The notes: generated from the sequence alone by a model not told the origin. A stretch of DNA of 64,000 bases from Phototrophicaceae bacterium (GCA_965207905.1 OZ242316.1:4163848-4227847), one strand, 5' to 3'. Numbered from the stretch's first letter, positions 24,761 through 54,402 are shown. Program-made: numbers and translations.

Positions 24761-24792
24761 TTTTTACCACAGAGACACAGAGACACAGAGAA
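24761..24792. repeat. CACAGAG-family repeat, left-end type (TTTTTACCACAGAGACACAGAGACACAGAGAA)
   Basis: 24773-24792 is the exact reverse complement of 25201-25220. 24761-24774 is the exact reverse complement of 26737-26750. Confidence 0.9.
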
Positions 24793-25200: not shown

Positions 25201-25238
25201 TTCTCTGTGTCTCTGTGTCTACTTTCACAACCCCTCAA
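25201..25238. repeat. CACAGAG-family repeat, inverted copy (TTCTCTGTGTCTCTGTGTCT ... CCCCTCAA)
   Basis: It forms a perfect 20-bp inverted repeat with 24773-24792. CCCCTCAA (25231-25238) is complementary to TTGAGGGG (24793-24800). Confidence 0.9.
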
Positions 25239-25447: not shown

Positions 25448-26677
25448 ATGGTACAACCTACGAAACATAACCGCGTTCGCATCTCGCAAGGCGATTTCGC
25501 TGTAGCGGGTCGCTATGATTGCACAGCAGGTTGCGATGTAGACGCAGACTATGTCGTTGTCTCGCTTTTGAACTTCAAATCACAGACAAACGAAATTCGG
25601 CAAATACCTCAGACTCAGGCAAAAGCGAATGCAGCTGCAAAGTGGCTCAAACAGAACAAAGTAGAGTTCATAGTTCTAGAATCGACCGCAAATTATCATT
25701 TGACTTTTTATCACGCTTGCCGAAAACTTGGTCTGAATGTACACATCATCAATCCCGCTCAAGTCACGGCGCTACTTCGAATAGAGGGCAAGTCGGATAA
25801 GGCGGATGCGACAAATCTAGCCATGCTAGCCGCTACTTTTCCCCTAAGAACTTCCAATGTTCCAGATGCCCAACAAATAGAGATTCGTAGCAACTTGCGG
25901 AATTATGACCGCGACAGAAAAGCATTAACTAAAGTTAAGCAACGGGTTCATCAAGAACTTGCGCAGTTTGGAATAAATATCTTCCGGGAAACTACGTTGA
26001 GAACCCAATCAGGCCGGGCGTTTCTGGAAGCGCTTTCTCAGACAGAGGACGCGGCGGAAATGATTGTTCAGAATCACTGGAAAGGTTCACCTAGCAGCCG
26101 CCCAAGATTGATAGAGGCAATGGGGAAGACGGAAGAACTCCCAACTTGGCTTCGTCAGGAACTTGAAGTGCTAAGAATTGACCTACTTGTTCAAGAGCAA
26201 AGAATTAGAAACCGAGAACAACAAGCGCTAAATCATATCGAACATTTTGAGCTAGCGCCTCAGATCGCTTGGATGTCCACGACACCAGGAGTAAACTGGC
26301 TCGTAGCTTTACGACTAATTGGTGAAATGGGATCGGACTTTTGGCAACGATATTCAACATCAAGAGCCTGGTGTAAGGCTTTAGGGGTCGCCCCGAACAC
26401 TCTTGTTTCTGCCGGGAAAGTCCTTAAAACCTCGAAAGCCTTAGGAAATAATCATGCCAAGCGACATCTCCTCATGCAAATGCGTAATTGGTTATTGCGA
26501 AACCATGAGCACCCATTGAAACAGTGGCAAGTACAATATAGAGCTAAAGCAGGCTTTCGCAAATCAGTATCCGCGTGCTGCAATAAAGCCATGACCAGTT
26601 TATATCATCAAGGCCGGCACGGCGGTTTACCGTATAATCCGAGTCGGATGAAGTTACGATTCCCTGAAACTATCTAG
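25448..26677 (+). CDS. IS110 family transposase (DEDD recombinase)
   Basis: 409 aa. VEFIVLESTANYHLTFYHACRKLGLNVHIINPAQV...KSDKADATNLA is the typical N-terminal DEDD_Tnp_IS110 region. The C-terminal Transposase_20-like region includes PGVNWLVALRLIGEMG. Confidence 0.9.
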   Translation: MVQPTKHNRVRISQGDFAVAGRYDCTAGCDVDADYVVVSLLNFKSQTNEIRQIPQTQAKANAAAKWLKQNKVEFIVLESTANYHLTFYHACRKLGLNVHIINPAQVTALLRIEGKSDKADATNLAMLAATFPLRTSNVPDAQQIEIRSNLRNYDRDRKALTKVKQRVHQELAQFGINIFRETTLRTQSGRAFLEALSQTEDAAEMIVQNHWKGSPSSRPRLIEAMGKTEELPTWLRQELEVLRIDLLVQEQRIRNREQQALNHIEHFELAPQIAWMSTTPGVNWLVALRLIGEMGSDFWQRYSTSRAWCKALGVAPNTLVSAGKVLKTSKALGNNHAKRHLLMQMRNWLLRNHEHPLKQWQVQYRAKAGFRKSVSACCNKAMTSLYHQGRHGGLPYNPSRMKLRFPETI

Positions 26678-34782: not shown

Positions 34783-34857
34783 TTTCACCACAGAGGGCGG
34801 AGGTCACGGAGGTTTTTTCACCACAAAGGGCACAAAGACACGAAGGTCACAAAGGGG
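34783..34857. repeat. CACAGAG-family repeat cluster, left-end orientation
   Basis: tttcaccacagagggcggaggtcacggagg is followed by ttttttcaccacaaagggcacaaagacacgaaggtcacaaag. 34813-34829 is an inverted repeat of 36623-36639 (16/17). Confidence 0.85.
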
Positions 34858-34896: not shown

Positions 34897-35871
34897 TTAC
34901 TGCATAGCGCGTTCTTTCCAGCGAACCGGCCCTAACTCTATCGGCAATGCACGAACAATTTCGTACAAACCGTCAAGATCATGCTGGATATCTTTCCAGA
35001 CGTACGGCTTAAGTAGGGCCGGTATCTCGGCCGATTCGGAAAACTTAAGCGCAATGATGGCGAACTTTTCTCCATACTCTCTCTTACGGCTCTTAGCATA
35101 GTTGATCTCGTCAGCCAAGATTCGTTCGTCTTTGAAGTCTTCTGTGATGAAGAAAACGACGGCACAACTTTCAGAGATTCCCCCGAAAATCCCTCTGTCG
35201 AGTTCCATTCCAGCATACATAGCGGGATCATCTAGCCACGGGTCGAAGCCCAATTGTTTGAGAACTTTGTGATATTTCTTTACTAGTTGTTTGTTTTCGG
35301 ATTTGTGACTTAGGAATATCCTTGTTTCATTCGTAGCCGGAATTCTTTCGATGGGAACAGCCTGCAATTCACGCGCTTCTTGAGATGGCATACCGATCGC
35401 TGCCTCCATTCTATCTCCCAAACTTAGGCAGAACGGCCTCACGACCAGCGAAAGAAAAAGTGACTTGCTTCCATCCATATCGCTCCAACGTGTGCGGCGA
35501 TCCTGCAAGTCTATGAAGTTCTGATCATGTTGGTTTGCATAGCCGTGGAGCAACTGGTATTGGAAGCTAAACTCTTCGTCCGGGTCGTCGGGAAATATCC
35601 AGATGCTACCGGTCTCCTTATCGAGTTTATCGTATTCGCTGTTCAGCCACGTTGTGAATCGGGCGGGTCCAGCATTTCTCATCAGAGGCGCTATAACTGA
35701 TTGCGCGACAGGATCTCGCTCCAAGAAGTTCAGCAGCGGGTGAAAATGATGGTCGAACTGCTCTATATCCTCGTTTATCAGTGCGTCTCGTCGCCTTTTG
35801 AATTGTCGTAACGTGTTGATCTGGGCGTCTCGTGTTATTTCGCTCACTTGGTGTACCTCATAGCAATACAT
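34897..35871 (-). CDS. TIR-domain protein with an uncharacterised N-terminal domain
   Basis: 324 aa. Residues ~183-305 (nt 34957-35325) read RIFLSHKSENKQLVKKYHKVLKQLGFDPWLDDPAMYAGMELDRGIFGGISESCAVVFFITEDFKDERILADEINYA, a bacterial TIR_2-like pattern. I recognise no motif in the N-terminal 180 aa. Confidence 0.75.
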   Translation of the reverse strand: MYCYEVHQVSEITRDAQINTLRQFKRRRDALINEDIEQFDHHFHPLLNFLERDPVAQSVIAPLMRNAGPARFTTWLNSEYDKLDKETGSIWIFPDDPDEEFSFQYQLLHGYANQHDQNFIDLQDRRTRWSDMDGSKSLFLSLVVRPFCLSLGDRMEAAIGMPSQEARELQAVPIERIPATNETRIFLSHKSENKQLVKKYHKVLKQLGFDPWLDDPAMYAGMELDRGIFGGISESCAVVFFITEDFKDERILADEINYAKSRKREYGEKFAIIALKFSESAEIPALLKPYVWKDIQHDLDGLYEIVRALPIELGPVRWKERAMQ

Positions 35872-36415
35872 TCTTTCTTGCGCAATATGGACAGTAGATC
35901 AAATCTAGCCAGCACGAAATGATTTTTATCGTCTCAGCACAGCACAGGAGTCGCACGACTTGCATATCGGGAAGCTCAGGTCCAGCTATCGGTTGCACCG
36001 AGATGGGCGATGATTCATGCGTAATCCGGATGAAGTCGTTTCTCCCGAATGAATTTGAAAGTCCATCAAACATGTTTCGAATTGACGGTTCTATGATGTG
36101 CCGAAACATCCACCTGTGCATGTATTCAGTAAACTCATCAGTATGCATATCTTGCTGAGCATCTGTATGTCCACAATAAGGACATGTCAATTCATCAAGT
36201 GTGTCTTCATTAACGTCTGAAGTTGATGAGACTAACGAATTTCCAGTGGTCTCGGCAAATATGGGTGCAAGCAACGTAGATAATTGTGATGGTTCGGTCA
36301 CGAGCTTGAAATGGAGTCCGCACGAGGCGCAGCCGCGTCGCATGTAACGGTCGCCGTCGAGCGAATACTCAATCTGAAATGTCCTAATGTCTGAATCGTG
36401 TTCGGACTCATTCAT
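35858..36415 (-). CDS. Hypothetical zinc-ribbon protein (Cys-knuckle pairs), partner of the TIR protein
   Basis: 185 aa with CASC (aa ~29-32), CPYC (aa ~78-81), CC (aa ~160) and a terminal CPYC. It overlaps the TIR gene by 14 nt. Confidence 0.6.
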   Translation of the reverse strand: MNESEHDSDIRTFQIEYSLDGDRYMRRGCASCGLHFKLVTEPSQLSTLLAPIFAETTGNSLVSSTSDVNEDTLDELTCPYCGHTDAQQDMHTDEFTEYMHRWMFRHIIEPSIRNMFDGLSNSFGRNDFIRITHESSPISVQPIAGPELPDMQVVRLLCCAETIKIISCWLDLIYCPYCARKNVLL

Positions 36416-36604: not shown

Positions 36605-36689
36605 TTCTTTGTGCCCTTTGTGCCTTTGTGGTCAAAAAAACCAATCCCCTAACTCGGTGCCCTCGGTGTACTCGGTGGTAAAGAAAAAA
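36605..36689. repeat. CACAGAG-family repeat cluster, right-end orientation (two units ending GTGGTCAAAAAAA and GTGGTAAAGAAAAAA)
   Basis: ttctttgtgccctttgtgcctttgtggtcaaaaaaa ... ctcggtgccctcggtgtactcggtggtaaagaaaaaac. Confidence 0.85.
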
Positions 36690-36725: not shown

Positions 36726-36748
36726 CAGCCCAAGTGGAGGACCGACCC

Positions 36749-37024
36749 ATGACCATCGATATCGCGGAAGACGTCGCGCTGCGCCTTGAAGCGCTCGCAA
36801 AAGCAAAAGACGCCGACATCAGCGACTTGCTGCGCGACATGATCGAGAGCTACGAGGACAAGGGCGACGCCAAACAGAAGCGCTGGGCGACAGGTGCGGA
36901 CTTTGCCAGAAACGCCAAAGCCGCAGGGCTGGCATCGCCCGAGCCGGTGGATACTTCAGCGCGCAGCCGCGAGATTCTTAGCACAGAGTTCGCAGACTAC
37001 TTGATACGCCGCGCCAACCGATGA
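36749..37024 (+). CDS. Ribbon-helix-helix (CopG/VapB-like) antitoxin
   Basis: The ORF track starts at 36734; ATG 36749 follows GGAGGA. MTIDIAEDVALRLEALAKAKDADISDLLRDMIE has the RHH pattern. It overlaps the PIN gene by 4 nt. Confidence 0.75.
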   Translation: MTIDIAEDVALRLEALAKAKDADISDLLRDMIESYEDKGDAKQKRWATGADFARNAKAAGLASPEPVDTSARSREILSTEFADYLIRRANR

Positions 37025-37434
37025 CCTTCATCGCGGACAGCAACTTTGTCTATGCGCTGTACAACGCCAATGATATCCATCATCAAGACGGGATGAGTTT
37101 GCTGTCTCAAAACTCGGAAGTTATGCTCGTGCCTGATGTGGTCCTGCCAGAAGTCGGTTATCTCATTGCGCGCGACATTGGCCACAGCGGAATGCCAACT
37201 TTCCTAGAGCACTTTATGCAGTTAGATGTTCGGCTTGAAGCGGTTGGCATGGAAGACTTGGCAAGAGTTCGCGATATTGTAAGCACCTATGCGGACGCCC
37301 GATTCGACATCGTAGACTGCTGTATCATGGCTATCGCTGAACGCCTGAACATCACGAGAGTCGCGACTTTCGACCGGCGTGACTTTAATATATTTCGCCC
37401 GCGCCACTGCGATTATCTTGAATTGTTGCCCTAG
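37021..37434 (+). CDS. vapC: PIN-domain toxin VapC
   Basis: 137 aa with FIADSNFVYAL...VLPEVGYL...DIVDCCIMAIAERLNITRVATFDRRDF. Confidence 0.85.
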   Translation: MTFIADSNFVYALYNANDIHHQDGMSLLSQNSEVMLVPDVVLPEVGYLIARDIGHSGMPTFLEHFMQLDVRLEAVGMEDLARVRDIVSTYADARFDIVDCCIMAIAERLNITRVATFDRRDFNIFRPRHCDYLELLP

Positions 37435-37447
37435 CTTCGCCTCTACG

Positions 37448-37571
37448 TTTCTTTGTGCCTTCGTGCCTTCGTGCCTTTGTGATCCAAAACATACCCTCTG
37501 TGCCCTCTCATTAACTCTGTGCCCTCGGTGGCAAAAGAAAAACACCTCTGTGTCTCTGTGCCTCTGTGGCC
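37448..37571. repeat. CACAGAG-family repeat cluster, right-end orientation (3-4 units)
   Basis: tttctttgtgccttcgtgccttcgtgcctttgtgatcc ... ctctgtgccctcggtggcaaaagaaaaa ... cctctgtgtctctgtgcctctgtggcc. Confidence 0.85.
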
Positions 37572-39029: not shown

Positions 39030-40151
39030 GTGACTGATATCTTGCAGAAGAAAATCCAAGGCTGCCTCTACGGTGGCGCAATCGGCGATGCCATGGGCGC
39101 GCCGGCTGAATGGCGCATGCCTGATGAGATTCGGGCGCGCTACGGCTATATCACCGACCTGGTCGAAGCCTGGGACGATGCCGATACGCGCGGGCGCGGT
39201 CACGGTCGTTACACCGACGACACGCACATGGTGCAGCTGCTCTGCGAGTGTTACCTCGAGCGCGGCGACCACCTGGACGCCCACGAATTCTTCCGCCGCA
39301 TCGTGCCCAAGATAGCGCTGGAAGATCGCTGGATCCCTGAGCGCGGCCGCGAGATGCCACTGGTTGAGCGGCTCTTCTATCCCGAGAAGTGGCTCTACAA
39401 TCGCTGGCTGGCCAATGCTGATCCGCGCATCGCCGGCGTCGGCAATATGGTCAACTGCGGCGCCGCCATGTACGCCGCGCCGGTCGGCATCGTCAACGCC
39501 TGCGATCCCGCGCGCGCCTACGCCGAAGCGGTCGATGTCTTCAGCGCCCACCAATACAGCTTCGGGCTGGAAGCGGCTGCCGTCATGGCCGCCTGCGTGG
39601 CCGAAGCCTTCAAGCCCGACGCCTCGGTCGCGTCGATCATCGACGCCGCGCTCACCGTCGCCAAAGAGGGCACCGCCGATTGCATCGCCGCCATCGCCGA
39701 TAAAGCCAGCACGCTGACCGACTGGCGCAGCGCCATCGCTCCCCTGCGCGATGTCATGCGCGAATACGACACCTCGCCCGATGACGCCAAGTCGCAGCGC
39801 GGCAACGGCAGCAACGACTGGACGCCCAGCCGCTCGCACAGCATTGAAGAGGTGCCCATCGCGCTCGGCTTCCTGGTGGTCACCGGCGGCGACTTCGAAG
39901 GCACGATCATGGGCGGGACTAACTACGGCCGCGATAACGACTCCATCGCCGGCATGGGCGGGGCCATCGCCGGGGCGCTGCACGGCATCGACACTCTGCG
40001 CGCCGACTGGGTCGAGCAGATCAATTCCGCCAACCGCATCGACTTGATGCCGCTCGCCGCCGACATGGCCGATCTGACGCGCGCGCTGCAGGCTGAGCAG
40101 CTGGCGTCTGCGCAGGCTCGGCGGGAGGCGTTTGCGGAGTTGGGCGGCTAA
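39030..40151 (+). CDS. ADP-ribosylglycohydrolase family protein
   Basis: 373 aa with a GTG start. The N-terminal GCLYGGAIGDAMGAPAEW and C-terminal DNDSIAGMGGAIAGALHG motifs are typical of the family. Confidence 0.85.
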   Translation: MTDILQKKIQGCLYGGAIGDAMGAPAEWRMPDEIRARYGYITDLVEAWDDADTRGRGHGRYTDDTHMVQLLCECYLERGDHLDAHEFFRRIVPKIALEDRWIPERGREMPLVERLFYPEKWLYNRWLANADPRIAGVGNMVNCGAAMYAAPVGIVNACDPARAYAEAVDVFSAHQYSFGLEAAAVMAACVAEAFKPDASVASIIDAALTVAKEGTADCIAAIADKASTLTDWRSAIAPLRDVMREYDTSPDDAKSQRGNGSNDWTPSRSHSIEEVPIALGFLVVTGGDFEGTIMGGTNYGRDNDSIAGMGGAIAGALHGIDTLRADWVEQINSANRIDLMPLAADMADLTRALQAEQLASAQARREAFAELGG

Positions 40152-40152
40152 C

Positions 40153-40181
40153 TCACCACAGAGGCACGAAGGGCATCGAGG
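40153..40181. repeat. CACAGAG-family repeat, left-end orientation (TCACCACAGAGGCACGAAGG...)
   Basis: It starts 2 nt after the ARH stop. tcaccacagag is the reverse complement of ctctgtggtga at 42528-42538. Confidence 0.8.
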
Positions 40182-40225
40182 AAAATGTAGGGTCGACATA
40201 TCATGTTGCCCGTATTCGCTTCTAG

Positions 40226-40376
40226 GAACTAGACAAAAGCCTTAGGTTGCCGCGATTGAAGGCCGTACAGCGCGGCCTGCTCGACCAGTTGATTGAAGCC
40301 GGTGGATCGGGAGATTGATGGGTTGGTGTACGCGTTGTATGGGTTGAGCGAGGAGGAGGCGGGGGTTGTGTCTGGG
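40226..40376 (+). pseudogene. Relic of the C-terminal tail of an RM/BREX-type N6-adenine DNA methyltransferase (two frames, no gene body)
   Basis: The frame from 40293 reads ...REIDGLVYALYGLSEEEAGVV. This matches the conserved EIDxLVYxLYGL(T/S)EEEIxxV tail I recall from type IIG / type I-like methyltransferases and PglX. A neighbouring frame reads ...RGLLDQLIEAGG and stops at 40316-40318. No upstream ORF exists. Confidence 0.4.
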
Positions 40377-40400
40377 GGGTGGTGTTGGGTAATTGAGTGT

Positions 40401-41558
40401 TCAGGTCGTATAGACGACAATTTTGAAGTCTTTGGGATCAACAAGTTGCCAGATTGAACCTTTCATCTGTAACATTCCAGTTACTGAAACGGTCTCCCAT
40501 TTCATATGCGCCCTATCTGCCTCAAAATAGTCATGCTTGTTAAGACGCATGCTTACCTTTCGACTGCGCTTTCTGCCAACAGTCCAATCAACAATAATCG
40601 CCCGGTCCTCCACAGTCTCGCTCAACGGGTCACCTGACGAGCTTAAGGCGATCACTCGGCCCTTGATCGTAACTCTTTGCTGAGGAACGAATCTGAGATA
40701 TTCTATGGCACTTTCTAGATACTTGAGGTGTTCACGCCCAAGACGAACGCGGTCAAAGTCTCTAACATCTGATGATGGCGGAAGCGTCTGAGACCAAGTG
40801 ATTGATAGTTCGTAAGGCGAGCTCAAGATGTAAATCATGTCACGAATTGCTTCGCACATTCTGGAATTGAATCCTTGCCCGTATTCCTTCTTCAGAAGCT
40901 CTTCATCCCGACCACTGAGTGCCTTAGCAGTGGCCTGCAGTCCGCGCGCGATCCTCTCTAACACACGACGTTCTAATGGTAGAATCCGAAAGTCCTCCCC
41001 GGGCAATTGATGTTGCTCGCGCTTGCTAATGTAACGCTTCTCTTGCCCCACAAGAGATTCAATCAATAGGCCGAAACTCCCCTCAAAAGTCTGGCCAAAC
41101 CGGAAGTGCTGTATCATTTTCGAACCAGTCGATAGCGGTTGCTTGAAATGGGCTTTGGCGTTACGCTCGGAACTCGCGGAATACTGAATAAGTTTCTTCA
41201 CATACCTCACATACTTCGAAGCTACATCATAAGGCAATGACGCATTGCTAGCGTTCTCCATAATGCGAACACGAAGTAAGTCACGGTCATGATAGCGGAT
41301 ATCGTTCGCAGTTGATTCCATTGTCTTGCGCTGTAGGGAAGAAAGTATCCTTATGGCGTGCTGAACATGCACGCGATAGTCTTCTTCTACGACATCTTTT
41401 GGCAATGCGATTTCAAAGTGCTTGCCCGACTTGCTCATTCGACCGTGAAAGACACGCCAACGCTCATTGTCAACTACGCGTTTCCAGCCATTCACCTCTA
41501 GGTAGGATGTCATGCGAGGAATCGCAAGATCCAGTTCCGCGATTTCTTTGTCAACCAT
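40401..41558 (-). CDS. Hypothetical 385-aa protein (possible HEPN-like RNAKAH motif), partner of the DUF4365-like gene
   Basis: No family recognised. A single Rx4H motif sits in SSERNAKAHF (nt 41148-41165). It overlaps the upstream gene by 8 nt (ATGGTTGA). Confidence 0.6.
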   Translation of the reverse strand: MVDKEIAELDLAIPRMTSYLEVNGWKRVVDNERWRVFHGRMSKSGKHFEIALPKDVVEEDYRVHVQHAIRILSSLQRKTMESTANDIRYHDRDLLRVRIMENASNASLPYDVASKYVRYVKKLIQYSASSERNAKAHFKQPLSTGSKMIQHFRFGQTFEGSFGLLIESLVGQEKRYISKREQHQLPGEDFRILPLERRVLERIARGLQATAKALSGRDEELLKKEYGQGFNSRMCEAIRDMIYILSSPYELSITWSQTLPPSSDVRDFDRVRLGREHLKYLESAIEYLRFVPQQRVTIKGRVIALSSSGDPLSETVEDRAIIVDWTVGRKRSRKVSMRLNKHDYFEADRAHMKWETVSVTGMLQMKGSIWQLVDPKDFKIVVYTT

Positions 41559-42078
41559 TAGGTCTGTACTCCGCCGCTTCCTCGAGTATCTGGTTCACAG
41601 CTGCTTGGTCGAAGACATTGCTTATTGGTATGCATACGCGTTTCGTCTCCTTGTTTGGAGATTTTGCTCCCAGGAGGCGGGCCCAATAGCAGCAGTTTCT
41701 AAGACACATGCAATCTCTACTAATCAGCAACCACTCTTTCTGGTCCTTTGGCATCGCAAACAGTACAAAAGCAACATAAGAACGCTTCGGATGTACCAAC
41801 TTGTTATAGGCATCTACTTTCATATCAAACTTTACGTGTGTTGGATTCTCCGCGTTTGGATAGAAAATGCAATCGGTTGATGCCTTCAGTTGGCATCGAA
41901 CGGGAGGGCCCGAGTCAGTAAAGGTCCCATTGTCATCCATGATTGCGCTTAGTGTGACATCTGTCCCATAGTCACTCGTGCCATCTATCTGCGATAATGT
42001 GGCTCCCGCTTGCGCAACAACGGCTCGGACATACGATAACTGTAGGTCTTGCATGATGTGTGTAAGTGGTCTGGGCAT
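41551..42078 (-). CDS. DUF4365-like restriction-endonuclease-fold (PD-(D/E)xK) protein
   Basis: 175 aa. LQLSYVRAVVAQAGATLSQIDGTSDYGTDVTLSAI...PVRCQLKAST matches my recollection of the DUF4365 pattern (D-Y-G-x-D ... Q-x-K). Not verified by HMM. Confidence 0.5.
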   Translation of the reverse strand: MPRPLTHIMQDLQLSYVRAVVAQAGATLSQIDGTSDYGTDVTLSAIMDDNGTFTDSGPPVRCQLKASTDCIFYPNAENPTHVKFDMKVDAYNKLVHPKRSYVAFVLFAMPKDQKEWLLISRDCMCLRNCCYWARLLGAKSPNKETKRVCIPISNVFDQAAVNQILEEAAEYRPNG

Positions 42079-42194
42079 TACCTTCTAGTCCCGCAAGAGA
42101 TTGGACAAGTATTGTGACATTAATATCGATCGCCGAAATTAGGCAGATGAACGAGCGGAGATGCGACAGATGATCGGTTACGCCCTCCGCCACC

Positions 42195-42440
42195 TCACTC
42201 CTTGAGGAAACCCGCCGGCGGCTTATAGGGCACGTCCAGGTGCTTGATGATGGCATCCACCTTATCATTGAGTTCAGCGAATTGTCGCTGGGACCACTCA
42301 TGGTTCGCCGCGACCGTTTCATTCAGTCCCAAAAGCGCCGCTTCGTACGTGTCAATTCTGTCCAGAATGTCGTCCTGTCCGTCACGAACGCTTTGATATT
42401 CCTTTTCGATCCGCTTCAAGCATATGTCGGTTGTCGCCAT
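42195..42440 (-). CDS. Small coiled-coil protein, paralogue of 54040-54402
   Basis: 81 aa. MATTDICLKRIEKEYQSVRDGQDDILDRI...IIKHLDVPYKPPAGFLKE aligns with MLTDDIRLGRIEQEYQTVRGTQDQLMDRM...IMDHLQVPKRRTGFLKTDD. Confidence 0.55.
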   Translation of the reverse strand: MATTDICLKRIEKEYQSVRDGQDDILDRIDTYEAALLGLNETVAANHEWSQRQFAELNDKVDAIIKHLDVPYKPPAGFLKE

Positions 42441-42495
42441 GTCGCCTCCTCGTGTTCACGCCCAGTATAAGGGGACTGCGTCAGCCTGTCAAAAT

Positions 42496-42549
42496 GCCTC
42501 TGTGCCCTCTGAGTGTCCTCGGTGTACTCTGTGGTGAAAAAAGAAAAGG
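42496..42549. repeat. CACAGAG-family repeat, right-end orientation (…CTCTGTGGTGAAAAAAGAAAAGG)
   Basis: gcctctgtgccctctgagtgtcctcggtgtactctgtggtgaaaaaagaaaagg lies immediately upstream of ATG 42557. Confidence 0.85.
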
Positions 42550-42556
42550 CAAACCC

Positions 42557-44275
42557 ATGTCCCAAACCGCCAAACGCAGCCAAGATTTCTTCAGCGCCGA
42601 GGGCGTCAGCGGCCTCATCCGCCGCGCCTTCACCGCCGCCTCGGGCTACGAAAGCGACGACATGTCCCGCCCGCTCATCGGCATCTGCAACACCTACAGC
42701 GAGCTCAACCATTGCAACAGCCACCTGCGCGCCGTCAGCGAAGCGGTCAAACGCGGCGTGCTGCAGGCCGGCGGCTTCCCGCTCGAATTCCCCACTATCT
42801 CGCTGGGCGAGGTCTACCTCAGCCCGACCTCCATGCTCTGCCGCAACCTGGCCGCCATGGACACCGAGGAGATGATCCGCGGCAATCCGCTCAGCGGCGT
42901 CGTGCTGCTGACCAACTGCGACAAGACCACGCCCGCCGCGCTGATGGGGGCCGCCAGCGCCGACCTGCCGACCATCATGGTCAGCGGCGGGCCCATGCTC
43001 AACGGCCACTTCCAGGGCGAAATCCTGGGCGCTTGCACCGATTGCCGCCGCTACTCGGCCGAGTACCAGGCGGGTACGATCAGCGCCGAGACCTACCAGG
43101 GCGTCGAGAAGAATCTGGTGCGCAGCGCCGGTCACTGCATGGTGATGGGCACGGCATCGACAATGAACTCGCTGATGGAGGCGCTGGGCATGGCGCTGCC
43201 AGGCAATGGCGCCATTCCCGCGTCAGACTCGCGCCGTCTGCAATTGGCGCAGGCGGCCGGGCGGCAGATCGTCCGCCTGGTCGAGGCCGATATCCGCCCC
43301 TCGCAGATCCTGACCGCCGCTGCCTTCGACAATGCCATCACGCTGCTGAACGCGGTCGGCGGCAGCACCAACGCCATCGTGCACCTGCCCGCGATCGCCG
43401 GCCGGGCCGGCGTCGACCTGCCGCTCTCGCGCTTTGACGAGATCAGCCGCCGCACGCCGCTGATCGCCAATATGCGCCCGACGGGCGACTACCAAATGGA
43501 AGACCTCTTCTACGCCGGCGGCATCCCGGCCGTGCTGAAAGAGCTGCTGCCCCTGCTGCACGGCGACGCCCTGACCGTGACCGGCCGGACCATGGCCGAA
43601 AATGTCGCTGACGCCGACATCAGCAATAGCGATATCATCCGCTCGCTGGACAACCCGCTGCAGCCGGAGGGTGGCTTGAGCATCTTGCGCGGCAACCTGG
43701 CGCCCGATGGCGCGGTCATCAAACACGCCGCCGCCACGCCCGCGCTCTGCAATCATCGCGGCCCTGCCCTCGTCTTCAAAGATGCCGCTGATGTTGCGGC
43801 GCGCATTCACGATCCCGCCCTGGACGTCACGCCCGATCACGTGCTGGTGCTGCAGAACGCCGGGCCCATCGGCGGCCCGGGCATGCCCGAAATCGGCAAC
43901 CTGCCCATCCCACAGAAGCTGCTGGAAGCGGGCGTGCGCGATATGGTTCGCATCTCCGACGCCCGCATGAGCGGCACGTCATACGGCGCCATCGTCCTGC
44001 ATGTCGCGCCGGAAGCTGCGCTGGGCGGGCCGCTGGCGCTCGTGCGTGATGGCGATGAGATCGAGCTGAATGTGGCCGAGCGGCGTTTGCAGCTGCACGT
44101 CTCCGAGGCCGAGCTGGCGCAGCGCCGGGCCGAGTGGTCGCCGCCCCCGCCGGCCTACTCGCGCGGTTACGGCCAACTCTACTTGCGCAGCGTCAACCAG
44201 GCGCCGCAGGGCTGCGACTTCGATTTCCTGCGCGGCAGCGACCCGGCCGGCCCCGTCTGGCAGCCGAAGTTTTAG
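42557..44275 (+). CDS. IlvD/Edd family dehydratase (dihydroxy-acid or sugar-acid dehydratase)
   Basis: The ORF track starts at 42431 inside the repeat. The likely start is MSQTAKRSQDFFSAEGVSG (42557). It has CNSHL, TNCDKTTP and MVMGTASTMN motifs. Whether it is IlvD proper or a sugar-acid dehydratase cannot be told from the sequence alone. Confidence 0.85.
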   Translation: MSQTAKRSQDFFSAEGVSGLIRRAFTAASGYESDDMSRPLIGICNTYSELNHCNSHLRAVSEAVKRGVLQAGGFPLEFPTISLGEVYLSPTSMLCRNLAAMDTEEMIRGNPLSGVVLLTNCDKTTPAALMGAASADLPTIMVSGGPMLNGHFQGEILGACTDCRRYSAEYQAGTISAETYQGVEKNLVRSAGHCMVMGTASTMNSLMEALGMALPGNGAIPASDSRRLQLAQAAGRQIVRLVEADIRPSQILTAAAFDNAITLLNAVGGSTNAIVHLPAIAGRAGVDLPLSRFDEISRRTPLIANMRPTGDYQMEDLFYAGGIPAVLKELLPLLHGDALTVTGRTMAENVADADISNSDIIRSLDNPLQPEGGLSILRGNLAPDGAVIKHAAATPALCNHRGPALVFKDAADVAARIHDPALDVTPDHVLVLQNAGPIGGPGMPEIGNLPIPQKLLEAGVRDMVRISDARMSGTSYGAIVLHVAPEAALGGPLALVRDGDEIELNVAERRLQLHVSEAELAQRRAEWSPPPPAYSRGYGQLYLRSVNQAPQGCDFDFLRGSDPAGPVWQPKF

Positions 44276-44844
44276 CTGGGGAAGAGGCGCTGCAAGTCCA
44301 GCGTGAAACCGGGCAAGACGTTCTCGCCGCTCACGCTGCCGTCTTGCGCGACAAACTCGCTGACGGGCTGTCCTTCGGCGTCCGCGCGCCACACCTCGAC
44401 GCCCGCCCGCTCCGGCAAAACGAGCCACACCAGTTCGGTTCCGTTTGCCAGGTAGACCGCGGCTTTGCGGCGCTGTTCAGTCAGCGTGTTGCTTGGGGAT
44501 GAGATTTCGACCGCCAAGTCCGGCATGCGGGGGACGAACTTTTCGTGTTCGTCATGCGGCGCAGCCTGCTTTCGCAGAAAGGCGACATCGGGCGCAAGCA
44601 GTGTCTGGCGATCATCGGCGGGATAATAGGCGGATTCGACAGTGCCTTCGCCCAAGTCATGCGCTTCGGCGTAGTTCAAAAGAAAGCGGAAGATATGTCC
44701 TGCAAGTCGTCCATGTCTGTATCCCGGCGCCATATCCCAGAACAGCTCCCCATCAATGAGATAATAATGCTTGAGTTCATTTTCCGGCAGCTGCGCAAGC
44801 CGCCAGACGTCGTCAACTGTGTAGAGCCGCTCCTGAATCGCCAT
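44272..44844 (-). CDS. Uma2 family (DUF820) PD-(D/E)xK endonuclease, copy 1
   Basis: The likely start is MAIQERLYTVDDVWRL (44844). PDVAFL...PDLAVEISSPSN...K...Y is the Uma2 core. Its stop overlaps the convergent dehydratase stop (44272-44275). Confidence 0.85.
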   Translation of the reverse strand: MAIQERLYTVDDVWRLAQLPENELKHYYLIDGELFWDMAPGYRHGRLAGHIFRFLLNYAEAHDLGEGTVESAYYPADDRQTLLAPDVAFLRKQAAPHDEHEKFVPRMPDLAVEISSPSNTLTEQRRKAAVYLANGTELVWLVLPERAGVEVWRADAEGQPVSEFVAQDGSVSGENVLPGFTLDLQRLFPS

Positions 44845-44983
44845 GCTTGCCTCGCGACAATCTCTGAGTAAAGACAATTATAGCGCAATCCTCGCCCCGT
44901 CGGCAGAAGGGTCGGGTGCGCCAATGCGGCATTCATTTCCTGCGCGGGCGCGACCCGGCCGGCCCCGTCTGGCAGCCGAAGTC

Positions 44984-45556
44984 TTAGCTGGGGAAGAGGC
45001 GCTGCAAGTCCAGCGTGAAACCGGGCAAGACATTCTCGCCGCTCACGCTGCCGTCTTGCGCGACAAACTCGCTGACCGGCTGACCGTCGGCGTCCGCGCG
45101 CCACACTTCGACGCCTGCCCGCTCCGGCAAAACGAGCCACACCAGCTCGGTTCCGTTTGCCAAGTAGACCGCGGCTTTGCGACGCAGTTCAGTCAGCGTG
45201 TTGCTTGGGGATGAGATTTCGACTGCCAAATCCGGCATTCGGGGGACAAACTTCTCGTGTTCGTCAGGCGGCGCAGCCTGCTTGCGCAGAAAGGGGACAT
45301 CGGGCGCAAGCAGCGTCTGGCGATCATCAGCGGGATAATAGCCGACTTCGCCGGTGACTTCGCCCAAATCATGTTGTTCGGAGTAGATCAACAAGTAATG
45401 TCCGATGAGAATTTCGAGTCGTCCATGCCTGTATCCCGGCGCCATATCCCAGAACAGCTCCCCATCAATGAGATAATAATGCTTGAGTTCATTTTCTGGC
45501 AGCTGCGCAAGCCGCCAGACGTCGTCAACTGTGTAAAGCCGCTCCTGAATCGCCAT
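44984..45556 (-). CDS. Uma2 family (DUF820) endonuclease, copy 2
   Basis: It has the same N- and C-terminal sequence as copy 1. The patch RLEILIGHYLLIYSEQHDLGEVTGEVGY diverges from RLAGHIFRFLLNYAEAHDLGEGTVESAY in copy 1. Confidence 0.85.
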   Translation of the reverse strand: MAIQERLYTVDDVWRLAQLPENELKHYYLIDGELFWDMAPGYRHGRLEILIGHYLLIYSEQHDLGEVTGEVGYYPADDRQTLLAPDVPFLRKQAAPPDEHEKFVPRMPDLAVEISSPSNTLTELRRKAAVYLANGTELVWLVLPERAGVEVWRADADGQPVSEFVAQDGSVSGENVLPGFTLDLQRLFPS

Positions 45557-45646
45557 GCTTGCCTCGCGACAATCTCTGAGTAAAGACAATTATAGCGCAA
45601 TCCTCGCCCCGTCGGCAGAAGGGTCGGGTGCGCCAATGCGGCATTC

Positions 45647-54039: not shown

Positions 54040-54402
54040 ATGTTGACGGACGACATTCGGCTCGGGCGGATTGAACAAGAATACCAAACCGTGCGTGGCA
54101 CACAAGATCAGCTGATGGATCGCATGAACGGGACAGGCGATGTTTTGCAGAGCCTGTTCGATCAAGTGGCCGCCAACGCGAGGTTGATAGAAGCGAATCG
54201 AGACGCCAGCCGGCAAGCGACAGAAGCGAACCGCAAAGCGATAGAAGCGAACCGAAAGGCGATAGAAGCGAACCGAGAAGAGATCGTGCTCCTTCGCCAA
54301 GCGGTTGCGGAAAACAGCCAAATGCTTATGGATATCATGGATCACTTGCAAGTGCCTAAGAGACGGACAGGTTTCTTGAAGACTGATGACAGCCCGAGCT
54401 AA
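54040..54402 (+). CDS. Small coiled-coil protein with IEANRKA heptad repeats, paralogue of 42195-42440
   Basis: 120 aa. 21-bp tandem units lie at 54187-54207 (degenerate), 54220-54240, 54241-54261 and 54262-54282. The N- and C-termini match the 81-aa paralogue. Confidence 0.55.
   Translation: MLTDDIRLGRIEQEYQTVRGTQDQLMDRMNGTGDVLQSLFDQVAANARLIEANRDASRQATEANRKAIEANRKAIEANREEIVLLRQAVAENSQMLMDIMDHLQVPKRRTGFLKTDDSPS

Follow-up and report, generated by a model that had tools for sequence, protein, structure and literature searches.

Among the known systems closest to the gene pair considered here is SPARDA, in which the DREN nuclease domain is activated when an Argonaute filament gathers four copies of it as a tetramer. 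The isolated domain (amino acids [aa] 1-146) is a monomer with no detectable activity; in NbaSPARDA its catalytic residues are D41, Q60, and K62, the triple alanine mutant being inactive, and mutation of the equivalent Q62/K64 of TmuRE likewise abolishes nuclease activity. The topology of DREN was described by the SPARDA authors as resembling that of Hjc resolvase. A second body of work is the "guilt-by-embedding" survey of Payne, Hughes, Fineran, and Jackson, who curated 145 phage defense candidates (PDC) (bioRxiv 10.1101/2024.01.29.577857), their starting material being gene cassettes found inside BREX, DISARM, and Type I restriction-modification (R-M) loci. One of their candidates, PDC-M02, has 894 instances in RefSeq and is given in their supplement file 8 as the cassette FAM_01850>>FAM_00842. 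In the 64,000-nucleotide (nt) stretch of a Phototrophicaceae bacterium genome analyzed here (GCA_965207905.1 OZ242316.1:4163848-4227847, hereafter the window), two adjacent minus-strand genes encoding a 175-aa protein (A) and a 385-aa protein (B) are, to judge from their sequences, an intact copy of this already catalogued candidate module. As an explanation of the evidence as a whole we favor an intact PDC-M02, with A as effector and B as sensor-regulator, situated in a decayed defense islet, and we hold this to be probable, if not strongly so.

The assignment to PDC-M02 comes from both proteins and from their arrangement. Against PADLOC-DB, A matched 23 PDC-M02A models, PDLC04290 at E = 3.7e-41 with residues 6-170 on profile positions 5-165 of 170, and B matched 31 PDC-M02B models, PDLC04333 at E = 1.5e-85 with residues 11-380 on profile positions 13-376 of 379; the PADLOC matches of both proteins were confined to PDC-M02 models. 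The layout is also that of the cassette, with A followed by B on the same strand, adjacent and overlapping by 8 nt. A first-pass annotation of the window had described two minus-strand open reading frames (ORFs) sharing these 8 nt, and both were read from the sequence with the same coordinates and lengths (Table 1); the plus-strand letters at 41551-41558 are TCAACCAT, which on the coding strand is ATGGTTGA. The overlap suggests translational coupling, and the A-B junctions of relatives and phages also abut or overlap. Farther upstream, a predicted sigma-70-like promoter may drive a small gene, orf81, together with A and B as one transcript; no intrinsic terminator was found, no terminator-like site lies between orf81 and B, and no Rfam family was found in the islet that holds these genes. 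The same annotation had presented the pair as a linked candidate-defense module, which both the PADLOC matches and the linkage described below bear out. The pair is not an uncatalogued system, PDC-M02 already standing on the candidate list of Payne et al.

From its sequence, A is predicted to be a free-standing nuclease domain of the DUF4365/DREN type, with a PD-(D/E)xK fold and an intact D...QxK signature. It matches Pfam DUF4365 (PF14280) at E = 5.5e-17 and 62.6 bits, well above the cutoff of 24.3, over profile positions 6-138 of 139, and its 175 aa comprise the nuclease domain alone, with no APAZ fusion. The D-Y-G-x-D ... Q-L-K pattern that had led to an initial guess of DUF4365 is present as described, and the assignments to this family and to a nuclease fold were correct. 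Within it, D40, Q63, and K65 are invariant in 36 of 36 A homologues taken from linked loci, while D36 and G38 reach 90% conservation or more in the same set. By motif and position, without a direct alignment, D40, Q63, and K65 appear to correspond to D41, Q60, and K62 of NbaSPARDA.

Co-occurrence of the two families across genomes, which had been suggested as a check on the pair, was assessed in 85 loci that contain a homologue of B. In 79 of these, the ORF immediately upstream of B on the same strand is A-like, with a median gap of 33 nt between the end of the A ORF and the first matched B codon, and four of the six exceptions are truncated by a contig end. The loci are spread over Chloroflexota, Chlorobiaceae, Chlamydiota, Cyanobacteria, Alphaproteobacteria, Thermodesulfobacteriota, Paenibacillus, Planctomycetota, Verrucomicrobiota, Acidobacteriota, and Saccharimonadales. 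All-against-all clustering of the ORFs of 86 loci returned A and B only, with no third recurring gene, and the pairwise identities of A and B correlate across 65 loci (rho 0.66; Mantel p ~0.001). The module moves from phylum to phylum and is also found on mobile elements: the temperate Leptospira phage LE1 carries it as LE1-0038 and LE1-0037, right after a 927-aa MmeI-family Type IIG enzyme, and in the Mycobacterium abscessus prophages prophi102-2 and prophiGD54-1 the left end begins with it, as genes 1 and 2. All four phage proteins gave strong PDC-M02A/PDC-M02B matches, the A-like ones being DUF4365 proteins, and B homologues occur on 11 plasmids. When the two ORFs on each side of the pair were scanned in loci L001-L045 (135 ORFs; loci other than the window are designated by L numbers), 11 matched a DNA-methyltransferase model, and Pfam counts were 5 for N6_Mtase, 4 for N6_N4_Mtase with HNH, 3 each for Eco57I, MmeI_Mtase, and Fic-like, and 2 each for TaqI_C, AAA_21, and AAA_15. 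This content fits a defense-island setting.

Protein B has no match in Pfam or NCBIfam and belongs to a large family of rather uniform length, which counts 3,613 cluster representatives at a threshold of E ≤ 1e-3 and 624 at one of E ≤ 1e-30, almost all of them 370-400 aa long. In 141 homologues the residues conserved at 90% or more are W25, P53, D93, E131, F154, T157, G160-S161-F162-G163, P194, R197, R202, G206, G229, N231, C235, W255, G300, L339, Y344, A347, A350, H351, and G361. AlphaFold2 models of full-length B (predicted local distance difference test [pLDDT] 79.5; predicted template-modeling score [pTM] 0.68) and of residues 1-290 (pLDDT 79.4; pTM 0.79) depict a mixed alpha/beta protein with three predicted domains. 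Foldseek found no full-length match to the complete model in the PDB, and its partial matches were almost all to oligonucleotide/oligosaccharide-binding (OB) folds, including SSB, RPA subunits, Stn1/Ten1, the PolC OB domain, and RecG, with a probability of ~1.0, E values of 4e-3 to 5e-2, ~90-110 aligned columns, and target-normalized template-modeling (TM) scores of 0.45-0.64. Because these matches are lost once residues 291-385 are removed, and because the modeled topology of that segment (beta1-3, helix, beta4-5) fits, the C terminus of B is probably an OB-like barrel. A Pfam tRNA_anti-codon match was seen in one of 97 B members and was weak (E = 1e-3). For residues 1-290 the PDB held no meaningful Foldseek match (best probability, 0.14; root-mean-square deviation, ~18 Å), and a PDB search with the B profile returned nothing significant. 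No Argonaute, MID-PIWI, or APAZ match was found in B by Pfam or Foldseek, so that a role as an Argonaute/APAZ-like partner finds no structural or Pfam support, nor was any helicase or ATPase motif or detectable enzymatic fold found in B. We infer that B is the sensor or regulator partner of the module, and hypothesize from the model that it binds nucleic acid via the OB-like domain.

Two phage proteins resemble parts of B. In searches of BFVD with the model of residues 1-290, the 101-aa Nodularia phage protein A0A482MK90 matched ~85 residues of B at a target-normalized TM of 0.70, and a 370-aa phage DUF6575 protein gave a weak match over ~300 columns (E = 5e-4). Either might be remotely related to B, or might be a phage mimic of one of its domains.

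A different role for B had been proposed in the first-pass annotation, namely, that of a HEPN RNase acting through R132 and H137 alongside the nuclease A. The segment SSERNAKAHF, with both residues in an R-N-A-K-A-H context, is indeed present in the window's B. In the 141 diverse homologues, R132 is present in just 25, where E is commoner, and H137 in 30, against 61 with Y and 35 with F; the two residues occur together in only 6, and any Rx4-6H within the aligned segment in 8. Residues ~131-140 form a loop with a pLDDT below 50 in both AlphaFold2 models. The Foldseek PDB matches to the B models include no HEPN or other helical-bundle structure, the BFVD matches to the model of residues 1-290 include no HEPN structure, and a Pfam scan of 97 diverse B members found neither a HEPN family nor any recurrent family. 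Motif conservation, the low-confidence loop, the mixed alpha/beta model, and the Pfam scan all led us to reject a HEPN identity for B, which is refuted as far as computation can tell and to which we give next to no credence. With the HEPN idea dropped, mutagenesis would best be aimed at D40, Q63, and K65 of A.

We propose a mechanism in which A, by analogy with the SPARDA DREN, would be an effector nuclease that is inactive alone, and in which B would bind A and hold it under control. B would detect an infection cue, a nucleic acid or protein bound via its OB-like domain, and upon that cue would either release A or assemble it into an active oligomer. Once active, A would degrade DNA or RNA indiscriminately, which would halt the phage's replication but sacrifice the cell (abortive infection). 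In a more specific form of this proposal, drawn from the same analogy, PDC-M02 would be an Argonaute-independent counterpart of SPARDA: B, as a new kind of sensor, would oligomerize on phage-derived nucleic acid or protein and assemble A into tetramers, leading to collateral DNA/RNA degradation, and in this Chloroflexota clade sensor and effector alleles would be swapped as cassettes at a fixed site edged by the CACAGAG-type heptad arrays described below, similar arrays bracketing other small defense or toxin-antitoxin cassettes in the same genome. We offer this more elaborate form tentatively and regard it as doubtful in its entirety.

G+C content falls to 0.46-0.54 across ~40200-42500 versus 0.60-0.70 on the flanks, and the islet so delimited lies between an ADP-ribosylglycohydrolase gene and an ilvD-like dehydratase gene, so that both the AT-rich character and the neighbors given in the first description of the islet hold. 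In nine of nine close relatives, whose ilvD-like proteins are 82-91% identical to that of the window, the pair is found at this site and diverges from the ilvD-like gene, and its low G+C content, 15-20 points under that of the host, recurs in the relatives. Eight genomes including the window were compared pairwise, a small sample with nonindependent pairs in which correlations are descriptive only. Identities were 81-93% for the ilvD-like protein and 79-96% for a flanking BNR protein, and 34-70% for A and 35-72% for B; the two flank proteins were congruent with each other (rho 0.55), whereas A and B showed no correlation with them (rho -0.04 and -0.11, respectively). The genome nearest to the window by its flanks, a Phototrophicaceae metagenome-assembled genome (L020), nevertheless carries one of the most distant alleles. 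A and B also sometimes reassort with respect to each other, with A 84% versus B 49% identical between L001 and L029, 33% versus 71% between L005 and L016, and 70% versus 33% between L017 and L032, and they do so between L005 and L032 as well; this implies recombination near the A/B junction. On these comparisons the site resembles a fixed hotspot where recombination exchanges alleles of a single module. Metagenome contigs with ilvD homologues at most 76% identical showed no pair and no other queried neighbor gene nearby, and are uninformative on an empty or differently occupied site.

Table 1. Features of the PDC-M02 islet, its flanks, and the heptad arrays; positions are counted from the first letter of the window
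Feature	Position (nt)	Strand	Remarks
Gene A (PDC-M02A), 175 aa	41551-42078	-	Pfam PF14280; PADLOC PDLC04290
DYGTD motif of A, D36-D40	41959-41973	-	D40 is the predicted metal-binding aspartate
QLK motif of A, Q63-K65	41884-41892	-	Predicted catalytic Q-x-K
Gene B (PDC-M02B), 385 aa	40401-41558	-	PADLOC PDLC04333; no Pfam family
A/B overlap, 8 nt	41551-41558	-	ATGGTTGA, stop of A and start of B
R132-x4-H137 of B, in SSERNAKAHF	41148-41165	-	Chance match to the HEPN motif
OB-fold-like C-terminal domain of B, ~residues 291-385	40404-40688	-	AlphaFold2 model and Foldseek
orf81, 81 aa	42195-42440	-	Conserved small coiled-coil gene; neighbor, not PDC-M02
Sigma-70-like promoter, TTGACA-17-TATACT	42464-42492	-	Predicted by consensus scan alone, 11/12 matches; upstream of orf81
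Type IIG C-terminus relic	40244-40379	+	40293-40379 firm; 40244-40292 weak, frameshifted
Left boundary, inverted-repeat arm and CACAGAG-type heptad array	40153-40182	+	2 nt after the ADP-ribosylglycohydrolase stop codon
Right boundary, inverted-repeat arm and heptad array	42497-42537	-	20 nt upstream of the ilvD-like ATG
ADP-ribosylglycohydrolase gene	39030-40151		Flank of islet
ilvD-like gene, dihydroxy-acid/6-phosphogluconate-type dehydratase	ATG at 42557		Flank of islet
Heptad array	24768-24784	+	
Heptad array	25201-25217	-	
Heptad array	34822-34839	+	
Heptad array	36605-36677	-	
Heptad array	37465-37568	-	
Heptad array	40157-40182	+	
Heptad array	42516-42533	-	

Beside the pair in the islet, the peptide encoded by 40293-40379 on the plus strand, LKPVDREIDGLVYALYGLSEEEAGVVSGG, shares 62-69% identity with the C-terminal 26-29 aa of two intact Type IIG enzymes, that of L029 (948 aa) and that of L032 (998 aa). 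Both contain Eco57I, MmeI_Mtase, and TaqI_C domains, and their genes converge on B; in L032 the order is ilvD(-), A and B, the Type IIG gene (-), and the ADP-ribosylglycohydrolase gene (-). The relic also has a weak PADLOC match to the C terminus of REase_MTase_IIG, and a Type IIG relic stands beside the pair in L001 too. A relic methyltransferase tail had been noted at this position, correctly; the Type IIG gene is intact beside the pair in L029 and L032. As read from this remnant, the islet is a decayed defense islet in which the neighboring Type IIG gene was deleted down to its last ~30-45 codons. A gene for a fused N6_N4 DNA methyltransferase and HNH endonuclease, 492-517 aa, was observed near or directly upstream of the pair in L001 (9035-10513) and L003 (3724-5277); this fusion was considered as the origin of the relic and rejected, since the relic has no similarity to it and matches Type IIG enzymes instead.

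The small coiled-coil ORF upstream of A, orf81, which the first-pass annotation had listed with the islet, is a real gene, although a conserved Chloroflexota-specific neighbor outside the two-gene module. Homologues lie upstream of A only in L013, L020 (3 copies), L023 (2 copies), and L029, and none were found in distant PDC-M02 loci; orf81 was rejected as a module part on the grounds that it is clade specific and upstream of A in few relatives only. Its family comprises at least 182 proteins; every named one is from Chloroflexi, and members are commonly 75-94% identical to the window copy, with lengths that step by 7 aa (81, 88, 95, 102, 109, and 116, with other series of 64/71 and 77/84/91), which suggests gain and loss of heptads. 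A paralogue is present in the window at ~54040-54402 (+), and copies of the family, sometimes in tandem, were seen at L020:4593-5326 and L023:4695-5139.

The ends of the islet carry a perfect 11-nt inverted repeat, TCACCACAGAG / CTCTGTGGTGA, at 40153-40163 and 42527-42537, together with heptad arrays, so that the inverted CACAGAG-family ends described earlier are real. CACAGAG-type arrays, the family to which this repeat belongs, number 11 in the window versus 1.1 expected from Markov-1 shuffles (maximum, 6), a density of 0.17 per kb versus 0.02 per kb in unrelated loci. Ten of the 11 are at boundaries between high and low G+C content; the arrays point inward, and inverted pairs bracket several small low-G+C islets. 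Often they consist of a T-run, then ACCACAGAG, then units of 8-9 nt. All 8 syntenic relatives have a T-run with a ACCACAGAG-like motif at the corresponding place upstream of their ilvD-like gene, if degenerate in L032 and L006, and the array on the ilvD side thus belongs to the backbone, where this borders the variable segment. Its counterpart on the ADP-ribosylglycohydrolase side was found in the window only, with no equivalent in the relatives, and sits in the gap where L032 has its intact Type IIG gene. The arrays could be recombination boundaries, ends like those of miniature inverted-repeat transposable elements, or regulatory elements.

Several further genes of the window were noted. A repeat-bracketed islet at 34897-36415 (-) has two overlapping genes, one for a TIR-domain protein of 324 aa (PF13676; E = 4e-13) and one for a protein of 185 aa that matches PADLOC PDC-M14A (E = 1e-21), and is probably the first candidate defense pair of the first-pass annotation. 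At 36734-37434 (+), in low-G+C sequence between heptad arrays, a ribbon-helix-helix (RHH) protein (96 aa; weak match) and a PIN-domain protein (137 aa; E = 7e-10) are encoded with a 4-nt overlap, an arrangement typical of VapBC-type toxin-antitoxin modules. In the segment 24753-26677 (+), inverted heptad arrays flank the gene of a 147-aa protein of the PDDEXK_3 nuclease family (PF13366; E = 2e-43), after which comes a transposase gene of the IS110 family (25448-26677). Two tandem genes, at 44272-44877 (-) and 44984-45589 (-), encode Uma2-family (PF05685) putative endonucleases of ~200 aa each; they lie a short way downstream of the ilvD-like gene, and one to three copies are conserved in several relatives (L001, L010, L016, and L020).

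A number of points weigh against an intact defense module of effector and sensor. The PDC candidates were termed untested by their own authors (bioRxiv 10.1101/2024.01.29.577857), and our literature search found no paper naming or assaying PDC-M02; other papers assayed other PDC systems only, those used in one of them being S01, S02, S05, S09, S27, S70, M05, and HEC-01. The neighbor scan had no matched control and used crude ORF calls, and the top 150 B homologues include no A-B fusion protein. PDB searches with A by sequence and by profile returned nothing significant, and A could therefore not be aligned directly to any solved DREN structure. The models of B were built on shallow alignments (16 and 12 sequences) with a mean pLDDT of ~79; its OB-fold match is modest (E = 4e-3 or weaker), and the best-conserved residues of that domain, Y344, A347, and H351, sit in the predicted helix, not in the strands. 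Net charge was considered as support for nucleic-acid binding by B and is not supportive: the window's copy is unusually basic (pI 9.6), and the family is acidic on average (median pI 5.9), which gives no general support for such binding. Presence in all nine close relatives is, finally, more constant than is seen for most defense systems.

That constancy bears on a toxin-antitoxin or addiction function, in which A would be a toxic nuclease and B its stoichiometric inhibitor, loss of the pair would kill the cell, and any anti-phage effect would be secondary or absent. A site that is filled in all nine relatives and yet has swapped alleles is what one would expect of genes that are replaceable but not easily lost; the genes overlap and are probably translationally coupled, the module occurs on plasmids and prophages, and at least the RHH-PIN islet shows that other small islets of the window hold cargo of the toxin-antitoxin type. 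B is nonetheless large, is predicted to have three domains, and shows about the same degree of conservation as A, unlike typical small, labile antitoxins, and the SPARDA DREN alone is inactive rather than constitutively toxic, while the cassettes of the PDC catalogue derive from R-M, BREX, and DISARM loci. We consider this function unlikely, with the proviso that it overlaps with a defensive one, because many abortive-infection systems act like toxin-antitoxin pairs.

The methyltransferases around the pair raise another alternative, an R-M accessory that would work with the adjacent methyltransferase or Type IIG enzyme as a Type IV-like nuclease that attacks DNA in the wrong state of modification or as a back-up upon R-M inhibition. 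It would account for the Type IIG genes that adjoin the pair in phage LE1, L029, and L032, the relics in the window and L001, the methyltransferase-HNH fusion beside the pair in L001 and L003, and the 11 of 135 neighbor ORFs with methyltransferase matches. At most loci, however, the two flanking genes include no methyltransferase, and there is no recurring partner family; the types vary (I, II, IIG, and III), which fits general defense-island clustering better, and in the window the pair is intact though its Type IIG neighbor has been deleted. An accessory role is on this evidence quite improbable. Still less credible to us is a housekeeping function in DNA repair or recombination, with A as an Hjc-like structure-specific nuclease and B as its OB-fold DNA-binding partner on host DNA intermediates. 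The Hjc-resolvase-like topology ascribed to DREN, the OB-like domain of B, and the fixed chromosomal site in all nine relatives would suit it, but the pair is patchy across phyla, is carried by phages and plasmids, and has a G+C content 15-20 points below that of its host; its alleles are 34-72% identical against 79-96% for the flanks and are incongruent with them, and genomes with ilvD homologues at most 76% identical show no pair near that gene.

PDC-M02 is worth pursuing on several counts. It is among the commonest of the untested multi-gene defense candidates, and its predicted effector is a nuclease domain whose activation by forced oligomerization has been solved in SPARDA, here with a non-Argonaute partner. 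In B, mutagenesis would best address the truly conserved residues D93, E131, T157, G160-S161-F162, R197, R202, W255, Y344, and H351. The Chloroflexota hotspot amounts to a set of natural A/B allele swaps that could show which of the two proteins sets specificity. Should the pair fail to defend against phage, that result would be a useful caution on guilt-by-embedding predictions.

Set against known systems, the module shares with Hachiman (HamA nuclease and HamB helicase) a logic in which a PD-(D/E)xK-type nuclease is checked by a larger infection-sensing partner, although the two have no sequence relationship and B has no helicase or ATPase motif. Divona, found in Vibrio integron cassettes, is a DUF4365-containing protein with reported anti-phage activity (bioRxiv 10.1101/2024.07.02.601686), and DUF4365 thus serves defense outside Argonaute systems; Divona, however, is a single protein that combines DUF4365 with a RecB/Mrr-like nuclease region and a crr6 domain and has no PDC-M02B-like partner. 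SPARDA has the same effector domain family, the D...QxK residues at nearly the same positions, and a two-gene operon, but there the nuclease is fused to APAZ and partnered by a short prokaryotic Argonaute (MID-PIWI), whereas here A is separate, lacks APAZ, and has a partner with no Argonaute match. Given the lack of any Argonaute, MID-PIWI, or APAZ match in B, nothing points to guide-directed sensing in PDC-M02. With the catalogued PDC-M02 itself, the window copy agrees in both full-length models, gene order, strand, and adjacency; it is a Chloroflexota member of that module, 23-49% identical to other members and in no way different in kind.

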